11,553 nucleotides of DNA from Candidatus Heimdallarchaeota archaeon (lineage in GTDB: Archaea; Asgardarchaeota; Heimdallarchaeia; Heimdallarchaeales; Kariarchaeaceae). The stretch covers positions 1 through 11,553 of the forward strand of contig WAKA01000214.1 in NCBI GenBank assembly GCA_015523565.1, written 5' to 3'. Positions within the stretch are counted from its first letter, which is position 1. Each line of letters opens with the position of its first letter. This document shows, piece by piece, positions 1-9,138 of the stretch. The notes beneath the pieces were generated by a model. That model searched no databases. It saw only the letters and a program-made list of their open reading frames with translations, and was not told the DNA's origin. The position numbers and the translations under genes are program-made.

Positions 1-386
1 CCCTTAACCTTGATAGTAAATCCTTTATACCAGCCAAATGGGGCTCTGATGACTTTTGTGAATCTTTCTGTTTTCTTCAAGTCGTCTTCAACTTTCCGCA
101 ATACCTTCAAAGCAATGTCTGGTCTAGAAGGTTTTGAAGTCAAGTGAACCCATGGATAACAGACTATGTTCTTGACTTTAAGTTCATCAGCCACTTTCAA
201 GATTTCCTTGACCGTCTGTTCTGCTGTTGCCTCAAAATTCTCTTCATCCCCTTTTTCGACAGCCATCATTGCGACAAGTGCCTCTGATACATGGACTGGC
301 TCCTTTGACACTTCTTCGGCTGCTTTAATGGCCTTTTTTTTCACTTCGTATTCAAACTCATCTGAATGGAGCAGTAAGATTTTCAA
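1..386 (-). CDS. thrS: Archaeal-type threonyl-tRNA synthetase, N-terminal editing domain (5' portion; runs off the left edge)
   Basis: Not in the ORF track. Manual translation from TTG (386-384) gives MKILLLHSDEFEYEVKKKAIKAAEE...ALVAMMAVEKGDE...KVKNIVCYPWVHLTSKPSRP...VIRAPFGWYKGFTIKVKG. This matches the archaeal ThrRS editing-domain motifs (LxxHxD, VEKxDE, YP-x-x-HL, APFGxYKxF). A GGTGA SD lies 6 nt upstream. A free-standing editing protein cannot be excluded because the gene is truncated. Confidence 0.92.
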   Translation of the reverse strand, partial: MKILLLHSDEFEYEVKKKAIKAAEEVSKEPVHVSEALVAMMAVEKGDEENFEATAEQTVKEILKVADELKVKNIVCYPWVHLTSKPSRPDIALKVLRKVEDDLKKTERFTKVIRAPFGWYKGFTIKVK

Positions 387-463: not shown

Positions 464-1177
464 TCAAAATACGTCAACAAATTTTGGAATGTCTGCATCT
501 ACGGATATTGTCCAGATTTCAATATCCTTATCACTCAGTTCTTTTGTTTCTTTATCTCCCATGATTTGATCGCTTTCAGTCTGCTTGATTGTGTCTTTTG
601 CAAGTTGAACAATCTCATCTAATGTCATATCTTCGCGGTAATGATCTTTCAGATAACTCATGGCTACTCCGTCTCCGTGTCCAATTGCTTTTGCCTTTGT
701 TTCAAGAAGACCTCCTCCGGGATTAACAAAATAAATTCTTGGCATCCCGTCCGTTTCAATTCCGCCTAATAGTAAACCAACTCCTAAGGGTCTTAATCCT
801 CCCTGTTGTGTAAACATATGGGCGTAATCTGCCAGTCTTGTTGCTACGTATTTTATGTCCGCAGGTGCTCCGTAGGTCATTTTATGCACTTGTGCCTCAA
901 TTCTCGCCCTGCTGATAAGAACCCTTCCGTCAGCCGCAAATCCTGCAAAGATTGCAGCGAAATGGTCATCTATTTGAGATATTTTGCTATTTGGGACATC
1001 CAAATCAGAGGCTCTGATTCTTCCTGCCAATACAACGCCTTCTTTGCATTTAATTGCCACTGAAATTGATCCTCGCCTCATTGCCTCCCTTGCATATTCC
1101 GTTTGGATAATCCTTCCATCGGGATTGTACATTGTTGAGCTTCTATCATATCCTAGTGAAGATCCTGGTGGTAACAT
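464..1177 (-). CDS. psmA: 20S proteasome alpha subunit (divergent)
   Basis: Alpha signature GYDRSSTMYNPDGRIIQTEYAREA (YDR/P/Y gate residues), plus KISQIDDH, ADGRVLISRARIEAQ, FTQQGGLRPLGVGLL and KAIG. AGGAGG SD at 1193-1188. Confidence 0.96.
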   Translation of the reverse strand: MLPPGSSLGYDRSSTMYNPDGRIIQTEYAREAMRRGSISVAIKCKEGVVLAGRIRASDLDVPNSKISQIDDHFAAIFAGFAADGRVLISRARIEAQVHKMTYGAPADIKYVATRLADYAHMFTQQGGLRPLGVGLLLGGIETDGMPRIYFVNPGGGLLETKAKAIGHGDGVAMSYLKDHYREDMTLDEIVQLAKDTIKQTESDQIMGDKETKELSDKDIEIWTISVDADIPKFVDVF

Positions 1178-1193
1178 CTTATTTTTTCCTCCT

Positions 1194-1880
1194 TTATCCT
1201 GTCAATGGGTACTTATCTCCCAATATGGACTTGATCTCATCTTTTGGTACTTCCTTGATCCCGTCCTTTGTGATGATCAACATATCAATTCCGTCACCTG
1301 TTGCAATATCTTTCTTGATTGCAGATCTCAGGGCCAAGAGTGCAACTTTTTTGGCTTGATCTTCCTCCATTTCCGGTTCATACATCGCTTCAAGTACACC
1401 CAATGCAAATGGTGACCCTGATCCTGTTGAAGTATATGGTTCTCTTGTAATAGATCCTGAAGGATCCATGCTGAAAACGTGACTTCCTGTTTCATCAACA
1501 CCTGCAACTATGGGTCCGACAAAATATGGGAAAAAGCTTCTGTATTGACCATACATTATGGTTGCAAGCAAATTGCCAATCATTCTTGTTGGCATTTCCC
1601 TTCCTCTATTCAACTCATATAGGTTGATTTCAGCTCTCATCAGCTTTATTAGGTATTGTGCATCTGAGACCATTCCAGCAATGGACATTGCTGTCCTTTT
1701 TGCGAGTTTATGAAGCTTCTTTGCTCGTGGTGATGCTACCATATATCCTGCAGAAGCCCTTTTGTCTGCAACCATGATTACACCATCCTTGAAGGTCAAG
1801 GCTAATGTGGTGGTTCCATGGATTGGCTCCTTAGGGTTAAGGTAGTCTGGAAAATTAATTTCTGGTTTCTTTCCAATCAT
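1194..1880 (-). CDS. psmB: 20S proteasome beta subunit, catalytically competent (22-aa propeptide)
   Basis: HG|TTT autoprocessing site. Counting from mature Thr1: D17 (ADKR), K33 and G47 are present, as are the GSGS and DIATG motifs of the Ntn-hydrolase active site. Confidence 0.97.
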   Translation of the reverse strand: MIGKKPEINFPDYLNPKEPIHGTTTLALTFKDGVIMVADKRASAGYMVASPRAKKLHKLAKRTAMSIAGMVSDAQYLIKLMRAEINLYELNRGREMPTRMIGNLLATIMYGQYRSFFPYFVGPIVAGVDETGSHVFSMDPSGSITREPYTSTGSGSPFALGVLEAMYEPEMEEDQAKKVALLALRSAIKKDIATGDGIDMLIITKDGIKEVPKDEIKSILGDKYPLTG

Positions 1881-1894
1881 CCTTTATCTATTCC

Positions 1895-1917
1895 AATATG
1901 AACATATTACTTAAAAA
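1895..1917 (-). promoter_or_regulatory. Putative psmB promoter: TATA box (TTTTTAAG, 1917-1910) followed by inverted repeat AATATG-N2-CATATT (1895-1908)
   Basis: TATA-like element about 30 nt upstream of the ATG. A perfect 6-2-6 dyad sits between the TATA box and the expected start site. Confidence 0.5.
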
Positions 1918-2104
1918 TGACTGAGATTTGACTGACAAAAAACCATTGAAAAGGAAGCTTGTAGTTGCCAAAATACTCTTAATTATTTCTATTTAATCTC
2001 AAGGGTTCACCATTTTAATAAGGTGGCGCTTTGTATTGTTCATTTTCACTTTGAATTACCTCCCATTGGTTTTATTATTGCAAACAATATATAAATAATT
2101 AAAG

Positions 2105-2494
2105 ATGACATTGGATATTGTGACGGCGCCGTCTCATTCCCCTCATTCTGGAATAACATTGCACAATGCAGTGATAATCGCCGTTGGCACTTTGGGTGGT
2201 CCCATTTCAATAAATGAGGCGTATGAATCATTTAGGGCTCTTATAGGGAAACTTAACATGAATCTGTCATTTTCTTCTCTCTCTTATAATACATTTGAGG
2301 CATTTATCCACAAGCTATCAAAAAAAGGTCTATTGCAAAGCATGACCATTGAAACTAAAGACGGACGTCATATCTATACCTATTTTCTGTCTGAGAATGG
2401 TTACCGCAAATATAGACAGATTATTGAGGAATTTCGGTCTTCTGTCAGATTTATGGATGCAATTAATCTCATTCGAAAATCATTTTGGCAATAA
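2105..2494 (+). CDS. Winged helix-turn-helix protein, PadR-like transcriptional regulator
   Basis: 129 aa. Helix-turn-helix region SYNTFEAFIHKLSKKGLL is followed by a beta-wing (SMTIETKDGRHIYTYFLSENG, matching the YxLTxxG pattern) and a C-terminal helix. A TTTTATTA TATA-like box lies at about 2070-2077. Confidence 0.7.
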   Translation: MTLDIVTAPSHSPHSGITLHNAVIIAVGTLGGPISINEAYESFRALIGKLNMNLSFSSLSYNTFEAFIHKLSKKGLLQSMTIETKDGRHIYTYFLSENGYRKYRQIIEEFRSSVRFMDAINLIRKSFWQ

Positions 2495-7889: not shown

Positions 7890-8186
7890 TCAATCTGGAT
7901 TTAAGACCAATCTGACTGTGCCATTTGAATCTTGAAATGCTATTGGCTCATTTTGTTCACGATTCAATAATTGTTTGAGATTAATGGCATAACTTCCACG
8001 CGATGTCACTCTTACTGCAATATGTTCTGAAATTAGAGGGTTTTCCACTTTCTTTTCTTTTTCTACAGCAACAGAGGTGAATTTTCTATTGCCACATGAG
8101 GGACAGCCTGAAATCAACGCTTTTGCAAAATCCAAAATCTCAATGCCACAAACGGAACATCTATTCTGAAATTCCTTCATTTCCAT
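7890..8186 (-). CDS. oapC: OapC/ArvC Zn-ribbon protein (DUF2072 family)
   Basis: RCSVCG...LISGCPSCGNRKF and the C-terminal IAVRVTSRGSYAINLKQLL...GTVRLVL; third gene after oapA-oapB. The GGAGGT SD abuts the ATG at 8186, so the ATG at 8180 may be the true start. Confidence 0.85.
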   Translation of the reverse strand: MEMKEFQNRCSVCGIEILDFAKALISGCPSCGNRKFTSVAVEKEKKVENPLISEHIAVRVTSRGSYAINLKQLLNREQNEPIAFQDSNGTVRLVLNPD

Positions 8187-8191
8187 ACCTC

Positions 8192-8533
8192 CTAAACAGT
8201 CAGTCCAACTGATAAAATACCATGTTCCTTTTGAATAATCTCGGCATCTCCAGGTGCAACTAACAACAAGCTGCTCTCTAATTTCTTTTGTCGAATAAAG
8301 CCTCCATACTTTGTCCTAATCCTCAACTCATGTAACTTAATTCCTATGAAATCTGTATCATACTGTTCCATAGCTCTTTGCATCAATAGCAATCTTTCAT
8401 CGGGTGACATGTTCATTTCAAGAAGCAGTATCCTGTCTTGTTTTATCTGTTCTATAATGAAATCAACACGCGATGATACATCATATCTTTCCAAGACTCC
8501 AAAAGGAACGAATTCAATGCTTTGGCGTGTCAT
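8192..8533 (-). CDS. oapB: OapB/ArvB protein (DUF2073 family)
   Basis: RVDFIIEQIKQDRILLLEMNMSPDERLLLMQRAME..DFIGI and LLLVAP follow the family pattern (IxxIlxxVxxxxIvvLExGLxPxEExxLIxxxM...FxGI). ATGA overlap with the oapA stop. Confidence 0.82.
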   Translation of the reverse strand: MTRQSIEFVPFGVLERYDVSSRVDFIIEQIKQDRILLLEMNMSPDERLLLMQRAMEQYDTDFIGIKLHELRIRTKYGGFIRQKKLESSLLLVAPGDAEIIQKEHGILSVGLTV

Positions 8534-9138
8534 CCTGCCACCTCTAACAATTGGTTATATAGGTTATCCATCCCTGATCCATATAAAGCAGAGACTGCAA
8601 CCACCTTATGTTGTGGAAATGTGGATTTGATTAAGTCAGGTTTTGCTTCAGGGAGATCTGCCTTGTTAGCAACAATTATTGTCTTTTTGTTCTGCATTTC
8701 CAATGTTCCAAGCAATGTTAAACTTACTTGGTCAAATGGCGTCTTAGTGGAATCCATCAAAACCAATGCAACATCTACTTCCTGAATATACTTAATTGCC
8801 GAAATAACCCCTGCTGTTGCTTCTTTGGCTCTCTTTATCGCCTCTTCCTCAGATAACCCCTCCCTTACAAATTCTTTATAATCGATTGAGCTTGCAATAC
8901 CAGGGGTGTCAACTAATGTCAAATCAAGAGCCCCTCCATCTATTTTGAAGTCTACATGTTCAAGCTTGACCAACTCCCTTGTCTCATGTGCGATATGGGA
9001 CACCGACGACATTTCTTTTCCGAGAAAATCTTTTGATATTCTATTTGCCAAAGTTGATTTTCCCGTGTTGACTTCTCCAATTAAACAAACTGACGCACTT
9101 TTCTTTTTTGTAAAAAGCCTTTGCAGGAAACCATTCAT
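8530..9138 (-). CDS. oapA: OapA/ArvA small GTPase (Era-like annotation)
   Basis: G1 GEVNTGKS, G2 HETR, G3 DTPG, G4 NKAD, G5 SAL. Family-specific strings TLANRI, IDYKEF, AxxRAKEATxGV, PFDQV and FPQH are also present. Confidence 0.92.
   Translation of the reverse strand: MNGFLQRLFTKKKSASVCLIGEVNTGKSTLANRISKDFLGKEMSSVSHIAHETRELVKLEHVDFKIDGGALDLTLVDTPGIASSIDYKEFVREGLSEEEAIKRAKEATAGVISAIKYIQEVDVALVLMDSTKTPFDQVSLTLLGTLEMQNKKTIIVANKADLPEAKPDLIKSTFPQHKVVAVSALYGSGMDNLYNQLLEVAG

Follow-up and report, generated by a model that had tools for sequence, protein, structure and literature searches.

Archaeal 20S proteasomes, as solved from Thermoplasma acidophilum (1PMA), Archaeoglobus fulgidus (1J2Q/6HE5) and Methanocaldococcus jannaschii (3H4P), are built from one type of alpha subunit (PsmA) and one type of beta subunit (PsmB). 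The proteasome of Haloferax volcanii is of the alpha1/alpha2/beta type, with two alpha paralogs and one beta subunit. In actinobacteria, the cell's only core particle is encoded by prcB-prcA, in which the beta gene tightly precedes the alpha gene. The usual archaeal psmA resides in the exosome/SBDS neighbourhood and psmB elsewhere; that archaeal proteasome and exosome genes are neighbours is textbook knowledge, the arrangement being a psmA-SBDS-Rrp4-Rrp41-Rrp42 superoperon (Koonin et al. 2001, as cited in PMC2588523). Here, we analyse a stretch of 11,553 nucleotides (nt), referred to as the window throughout, from a Heimdallarchaeota metagenome-assembled genome (MAG; 3.57 Mb, 233 contigs, 90% complete): psmB and psmA lie side by side in it and probably constitute a bicistronic operon that encodes the only 20S core of this Heimdallarchaeota archaeon, with the working and the history proposed below.

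The locus was placed in a survey of 70 genomes of its class, all at least 80% complete and distributed over seven families (f1 to f7), of which f1 to f4 make up the order of the window. Compared with the solved archaeal particles, the window genes are alike in specifying one alpha and one beta type, the N-terminal nucleophile (Ntn) hydrolase fold, a propeptide ending in Gly|Thr1, Asp/Glu17, Lys33, the YDR gate of the alpha subunit and the activator-pocket Lys, and the genome provides PAN and Cdc48 as partners. They are unlike in being adjacent, beta then alpha, in an alpha that falls outside the clade of exosome-linked psmA genes, in scores under the NCBIfam equivalog cut-offs and in a Thr instead of Ser at position 169 of beta. 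The exosome-proteasome superoperon is represented in the window genome by SBDS-Rrp4-Rrp41-Rrp42, and its full form with psmA occurs in other Asgard families as well as in f5 and f6; in contrast, the psmA position is empty in the window genome and its order, and Rrp41 is extended by ~270 residues. With prcB-prcA, the locus shares the gene order, the tight spacing and the status as the cell's only core particle, whereas its sequences are archaeal, a Pup-ligase/Mpa system is absent nearby and the arrangement would have originated independently within the Asgard archaea. Two-alpha/one-beta archaea such as Haloferax volcanii resemble families f5 and f6 in make-up, and the window alpha appears to belong to the lineage of the second alpha of f5 and f6; the window genome, however, keeps only this second-type alpha, and the paralogs presumably arose within Asgard archaea, not haloarchaea.

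Proteasome gene content

The proteasome features of the window, all on the minus strand, are the following:

1880..1194, minus strand: psmB, proteasome beta (catalytic) subunit, 228 residues; PF00227, 7e-57
1193..1178, minus strand: psmB-psmA spacer, 16 nt; coding strand TAA-AGGAGGAAAAAATAAG-ATG
1177..464, minus strand: psmA, proteasome alpha (gate/ring) subunit, 237 residues; PF00227, 4e-47, and PF10584, 1e-9
1910..1934, minus strand: putative psmB promoter, from sequence and conservation

A PF00227 profile search of the whole 3.57-Mb assembly returned two matches, both in the window, and tblastn searches started from 10 diverse alpha and beta proteins of Asgard archaea revealed no further alpha or beta gene at E <= 1, all matches lying on the window contig. 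The same holds across the order: exactly two PF00227 matches were obtained in 34 of 40 relatives from the four families, genomes with two matches list them as adjacent, same-strand beta-then-alpha pairs in nearly all cases, and two closed genomes of the order (G015 and G020) contain only two proteasome genes each. The exosome operon of the window genome was assembled intact as SBDS-Rrp4-Rrp41-Rrp42; psmA is absent ahead of its SBDS, and neither phmmer on the open reading frames (ORFs) nor tblastn at E <= 1 detected a psmA remnant upstream of SBDS. Because the two genes are the only PF00227 genes of the genome, because nearly every genome of the order has just two such genes and because the exosome operon lacks psmA, the pair is almost certainly the sole housekeeping 20S core of this archaeon. 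The first-pass annotation of the window, made from the sequence alone, had considered the pair a possible addition to a housekeeping proteasome and had pointed to the exosome superoperon as the place to look for a canonical psmA. That operon starts at SBDS, and the PF00227 and tblastn searches returned what had been named there as contrary to the idea of an additional pair: sole alpha and beta genes in the genome.

The partners of the core particle are encoded elsewhere in the genome: PAN (572 bits, cut-off 500), several Cdc48-like ATPases and a PAC2-family chaperone. The C-termini of PAN (L098:277-1485, minus strand; ...NFENFA) and of the PAC2 protein (L096:332-1105, minus strand; ...GMFL) both have Phe in place of the Tyr of the classical HbYX docking motif. 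A peculiarity of the exosome operon is its Rrp41 (RNase PH) gene (L022:8034-9494, plus strand, on G000:C37), which encodes 486 residues; the RNase PH domains end at approximately residue 211 and are followed by a C-terminal extension of ~270 residues without a Pfam match, compared with a total of 254 residues in the family f5 homolog.

The arrangement of the two genes is compact. A Shine-Dalgarno-like AGGAGG lies immediately 3' of the psmB TAA and 10 nt 5' of the psmA ATG, and the family f1 relatives likewise have AGGAG(G) in psmB-psmA gaps of 6-16 nt. Direct reading thus bears out the earlier description of co-oriented genes 16 nt apart with AGGAGG in the gap, to which only the strand (minus) has to be added, and the proposal of a compact, co-oriented operon with one promoter region upstream of psmB gains support from an upstream element that is conserved in relatives. 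Domain searches of the window ORFs found no pup, pafA, arc, PAN, exosome or SBDS gene, so that the reported lack of these genes in the flanks extends to every window ORF; mpa and dop are likewise absent near psmB-psmA among these ORFs. From this arrangement, psmB and psmA are predicted to be co-transcribed and translationally coupled.

Subunit identity

The beta subunit matches PF00227 with 192.5 bits over residues 21-203, which identifies a proteasome (Ntn-hydrolase) domain. Its best model, by a margin of 110 bits, is TIGR03634 for archaeal beta subunits (218.5 bits, cut-off 224), whereas the bacterial beta model TIGR03690 yields 107.9 bits (cut-off 191.9); the best solved relatives are those of A. 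fulgidus (6he5/1j2q, 2e-47). A propeptide of 22 residues (codons 1880-1815) ends in HG|TTT, and residue 23 aligns to the mature Thr1 of the A. fulgidus beta subunit (1j2q_H). The catalytic set is present (Thr1, Asp17, Lys33, GSG with Ser129, and Asp166); position 169 is Thr where Ser is expected, a conservative change.

The alpha subunit matches PF10584 (38.1 bits, cut-off 27.7) and PF00227 (160.7 bits) and carries the YDR gate motif (GYDR), the activator-pocket Lys in NSKISQIDD, the GRIIQ signature typical of the operon-borne alpha clade and an acidic C-terminal tail. Scores are 218.5 bits for the subfamily model NF003075 (cut-off 219), 211.3 for the equivalog TIGR03633 (cut-off 287.35) and 29.9 for the bacterial alpha model TIGR03691 (cut-off 139). 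Its best solved relatives are 9s34_H (1e-55) and the M. jannaschii subunit (3h4p); among public records, an "uncultured archaeon" MAG is nearest with 90% identity, followed by Candidatus Heimdallarchaeota archaeon MAGs with 66-78%. By sequence, the window alpha is a divergent member of the archaeal 20S alpha family. The impression of the first-pass annotation that both proteins look archaeal is thus substantiated by Pfam, NCBIfam and PDB matches, all of them to archaeal 20S subunits, and by intact catalytic and gate residues: judged by their residues, psmB and psmA are of archaeal type and catalytically complete.

Distribution in the class and the phylum

The beta-then-alpha pair occurs in approximately 65 of the 70 class genomes and in every one of the seven families, which answers the earlier call for synteny in relatives; because the same pair recurs so widely, the adjacency of psmB and psmA is not a matter of chance. 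The spacing varies: in family f7, the ORF calls overlap by 23 nt, where a start placed 8 codons later would leave 1 nt, and at the other extreme the gap is 66 nt. Families f1 to f4 and f7 have only the beta-alpha pair. In f5 (19 genomes) and f6, it is accompanied by a third proteasome gene, which is a canonical alpha directly upstream of SBDS in six of six loci examined, and mixed or alternative alpha rings are possible there. The earlier notion of a paralogous pair coexisting with other proteasome genes therefore stands in part: the pair does have a distinct alpha lineage and does coexist with canonical psmA in f5 and f6, but not in the window genome.

The operon alpha of f5 and f6 is a divergent protein of 220-225 residues with the pattern YDK...WSP(D/Q)GE, placed after beta (L027:6230-6961 with L028:3396-4724, from G053; L029-L038). 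It starts 12-66 nt downstream of beta in five of six loci, with a 4-nt overlap of the ORF calls in the sixth. Family f5 genomes carry their closest ortholog of the Cdc48 encoded in the window genome at a distance of ~7-9 kb from the psmA-SBDS-exosome operon (G053:C1:2346322-2355799; G057:C8:131653-141132; G062:C257; G061:C51).

The wider phylum was sampled with 43 non-Heimdall Asgard genomes from 15 families, each of which carries 3-6 PF00227 genes. In the five listed in full, 2-3 alphas and 2-3 betas are all scattered (loci L075-L095), with no beta-alpha pair among them. A psmA directly upstream of SBDS was found in 11 other Asgard families. Since the other Asgard genomes searched carry 3-6 genes, the proteasome gene set of the window's order is the smallest observed in the phylum.

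Descent of the alpha subunit

The main tree (IQ-TREE, LG+C20+F+G4 with posterior mean site frequencies, PMSF; 37 alphas and 6 betas as outgroup) divides the alphas into two clades. The first comprises every operon-borne Heimdall alpha and one lone alpha of family f21, with an ultrafast bootstrap (UFBoot) of 96 and a Shimodaira-Hasegawa-like approximate likelihood-ratio test (SH-aLRT) value of 93; the second comprises the exosome-linked alphas of all Asgard families, Heimdall f5 and f6 included (90/89). The first-pass annotation had suggested asking whether the pair branches with housekeeping orthologs: the window alpha lies outside the exosome-linked psmA clade. Earlier quick trees agree with the two-way split, one of them uniting the operon alphas at 87, and the split was kept after removal of the long-branched f5/f6 operon alphas (SH-aLRT 86). 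In approximately unbiased (AU) tests, a tree in which the alphas of the window's order and f7 were forced together with the Heimdall exosome-linked alphas was rejected (p 0.008, log-likelihood difference 50.8), and a single clade of all operon alphas was not (p 0.35). The motif GRIIQ is common to the window's order, f7 and the f21 alpha, canonical alphas having mostly GRLFQ. The Heimdall operon betas form a single clade with support 99. The lone alpha of f21 (L090:1432-2136, minus strand) is an observation in its own right, as it joins the Heimdall operon alphas in the tree and has the same motif.

Trees and synteny together suggest the following as the most economical history: The beta-alpha operon is very probably ancestral to the whole class; it would date back at least to the base of the class and would have included an alpha lineage of its own, present beside canonical psmA. 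Families f5 and f6 would have kept the operon beside the ancestral psmA ahead of SBDS in the exosome operon, whereas the window's order and f7 would have lost canonical psmA, leaving the operon-borne alpha paralog as sole alpha. For this last step, the take-over by the paralog, our confidence is moderate.

Several observations weigh against this account and the wider reading of the locus, or restrain them. A tree with the alphas of the window's order and f7 somewhere in the broad canonical clade was not rejected by the AU test (p 0.146), which is why the paralog reading is held at a moderate level. Confidence in the take-over is further tempered because the operon alphas are faster-evolving and are the alphas nearest to the beta outgroup, a pattern also expected from long-branch attraction, and because the clade tests were defined after the tree was seen. 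The exosome-linked alphas of f5 and f6 do not group together in the free tree, and the penalty in the rejected constraint (p 0.008) is inflated for this reason. Both subunits fall short of the NCBIfam equivalog cut-offs, psmA has no clear oligo-T terminator behind it in the window, and the assembly, being only 90% complete, leaves room for a third proteasome gene; against such a gene in the window genome speak the exosome operon, which is intact, and the closed genomes of relatives.

The alternative that fares best is a plain relocation, in which canonical psmA moved behind psmB in the window's order and f7, the f5/f6 pair having arisen separately by duplication; the window alpha would then be an ordinary ortholog, displaced and faster-evolving. 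This is compatible with the unrejected position in the broad canonical clade and with the bit scores of the window alpha, which are 141-144 against the f5 exosome-linked psmA and 112-116 against the f5 operon alpha', and long-branch attraction to the beta outgroup could produce the separate clade. Relocation requires, however, that the beta-then-alpha adjacency arose at least twice in one class, and it is at odds with the free trees that unite the operon alphas (96/93; 87), with the rejection of a tree that joins the window-order and f7 alphas to the exosome-linked ones of Heimdall, and with the sharing of GRIIQ by the window's order, f7 and the f21 alpha. We therefore regard it as unlikely, though worth keeping in sight.

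A second, specialised core particle, or exchangeable subunits, beside a canonical housekeeping proteasome is very improbable. An alpha in a clade apart from exosome-linked psmA, scores below or just below the NCBIfam equivalog cut-offs, the coexistence of the pair with canonical psmA in the sister families f5 and f6 and the incompleteness of the assembly could all be cited in its favour, but the genome has no other PF00227 gene, its exosome operon is intact without psmA, the order has two genes only, two closed genomes included, and f5 and f6 have a single beta, so that at most the alpha ring could vary there. Horizontal gain of a bacterial, actinobacterial-type prcB-prcA operon, suggested by gene order and tight spacing and by nothing else, is rejected on model scores (bacterial 108 bits for beta and 30 for alpha, archaeal 218 and 211-218) and has a negligible probability, as the closest solved structures come from archaea, both genes fall within Asgard sequences in the trees, pup, pafA, mpa and dop are missing nearby, and the sole actinobacterial locus recovered is 26% identical. 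What remains of the likeness to prcBA drawn in the first-pass annotation is thus the gene order, not an affinity of sequence.

Putative promoter element and possible regulon

Upstream of psmB, a TATA-like TTTTTAAG at 1917-1910 is preceded by AGTCATT (1922-1916), 33-42 nt upstream of the psmB ATG (1880). The proximal element CAGTCATT occupies 1923-1916, and a distal CAGTCA is found 11 nt further upstream at 1934-1929. Families f1 to f4, f6 and f7 share AGTCATT with an A/T-rich box within the 110 nt upstream of psmB, and f5 has a weaker version; in f3 and in one f1 genome, the AGTCATT element is palindromic. A perfect dyad at 1895-1908 is not conserved in relatives, and a scan of the window for sigma-70 promoters and hairpin terminators, a method inapplicable to archaea, gave no more matches than shuffled sequence.

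The strict motif occurs 16 times in the window genome, which is not above the expectation from base composition. Ten of these occurrences lie 10-150 nt before an ORF, and three of the ten precede genes of the proteasome system: psmB, the PAC2 chaperone and one Cdc48. In these three cases, AGTCATT and a TATA-like box are situated 17-42 nt before the start (PAC2, G000:C9:8643, minus strand; Cdc48, G000:C207:37772, plus strand). Of 19 PAC2 loci in the window's order (families f1 and f2), 15 have the element before the gene, compared with none of the f5, f6 or f7 loci examined; before Cdc48, it is present in three of three loci in the window's genus and none elsewhere; before PAN, it is absent. 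This distribution suggests that the AGTCATT and TATA-like element marks a small proteasome regulon, which, if real, would be functionally analogous to the Rpn4/PACE circuit of yeast. One family f7 PAC2 ortholog (G067:C6:84622-85347, L117) has three in-frame TAA codons in the match, which may mark a pseudogene or stem from an error of assembly or alignment.

Taken jointly, these lines allow a tentative and, as a whole, somewhat doubtful picture: The ancestor of the class, or an earlier Asgard ancestor, would have had an exosome-linked psmA together with an older GRIIQ-type paralog in an operon with the single beta; f5 and f6 would retain both, possibly in alternative or mixed rings, the window's order would run on the paralog alone, and the upstream element would define a dedicated proteasome regulon of psmBA and PAC2 across the order, joined by Cdc48 in the genus.

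Proposed working of the locus

The locus could work in the following manner: Transcription would start just downstream of the TATA-like box preceded by AGTCATT. From the same mRNA, psmA would be translated via its own AGGAGG, 10 nt 5' of its start, and alpha and beta would thereby be supplied in matched amounts for an alpha7-beta7-beta7-alpha7 particle. The beta subunit would mature through autocleavage at Gly22|Thr23. Assembly and activity of the particle are expected from the sequences, and it would be served by PAN, Cdc48 and the PAC2-family chaperone.

Neighbouring genes

The other genes of the window encode a stand-alone editing domain of threonyl-tRNA synthetase (ThrRS), a small winged-helix-turn-helix (wHTH)-like ORF, a Zn-ribbon/coiled-coil protein, thioredoxin reductase, an ArsR/MarR-like helix-turn-helix protein, an MCP-domain protein, CofC, OapABC and LivK/LivH. 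The archaeal ThrRS editing-domain gene at 3-386 (minus strand; PF08915, 3e-40) starts with TTG, preceded by GGTGA. It follows psmA at a distance of 77 nt and occupies the same position in most family f1 loci, though not in one genome of the same genus (L043). It may share the psmA transcript, because no clear oligo-T terminator lies between the two genes.

On the other side, a small divergent ORF at 2105-2494 (plus strand, 129 residues) has only weak winged-helix matches (Penicillinase_R, E 0.04; Cdc6_C wH, E 0.07). Its homologs adjoin the operon in only part of the genus, pointing either way, and outside the genus not at all. As a conserved neighbouring regulator, it was rejected in view of the weak wHTH matches and the patchy occurrence within the genus; being patchy and variable in orientation, it was left out of the unit. 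At 7890-9138 (minus strand), a three-gene cluster of a GTPase (MMR_HSR1), OapB (PF09846) and OapC (PF09845) fits an oapABC-type operon.

Implications

The proteasome itself is ordinary; what departs from the usual is the gene order, the alpha lineage and the missing canonical psmA. In the literature searched, we found no account of the beta-then-alpha order or of so small a subunit set in Heimdallarchaeia, nor anything on the regulation of proteasome genes in Asgard archaea. The analysis leaves three findings: the class-wide beta-alpha operon, the probable take-over by a paralog with loss of canonical psmA and the shared putative promoter element. The shared element gives an entry point to how Asgard archaea regulate their proteasome genes, and the compact stoichiometric operon should be easy to express. 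For annotation, caution is advisable: in Heimdall genomes of the window's order, a beta-alpha operon is not an "extra" proteasome.

Of the archaea, Heimdallarchaeia are usually placed closest to the eukaryotes. The eukaryotic 20S core comprises 14 different subunits; much of the class shows the opposite trend, with a single alpha and a single beta locked in one operon, which limits how much of the eukaryotic ring heterogeneity is traceable to the Heimdall lineage. At the same time, families with two alphas and one beta and families with one of each provide a natural series for the question whether archaeal alpha paralogs mix within rings.

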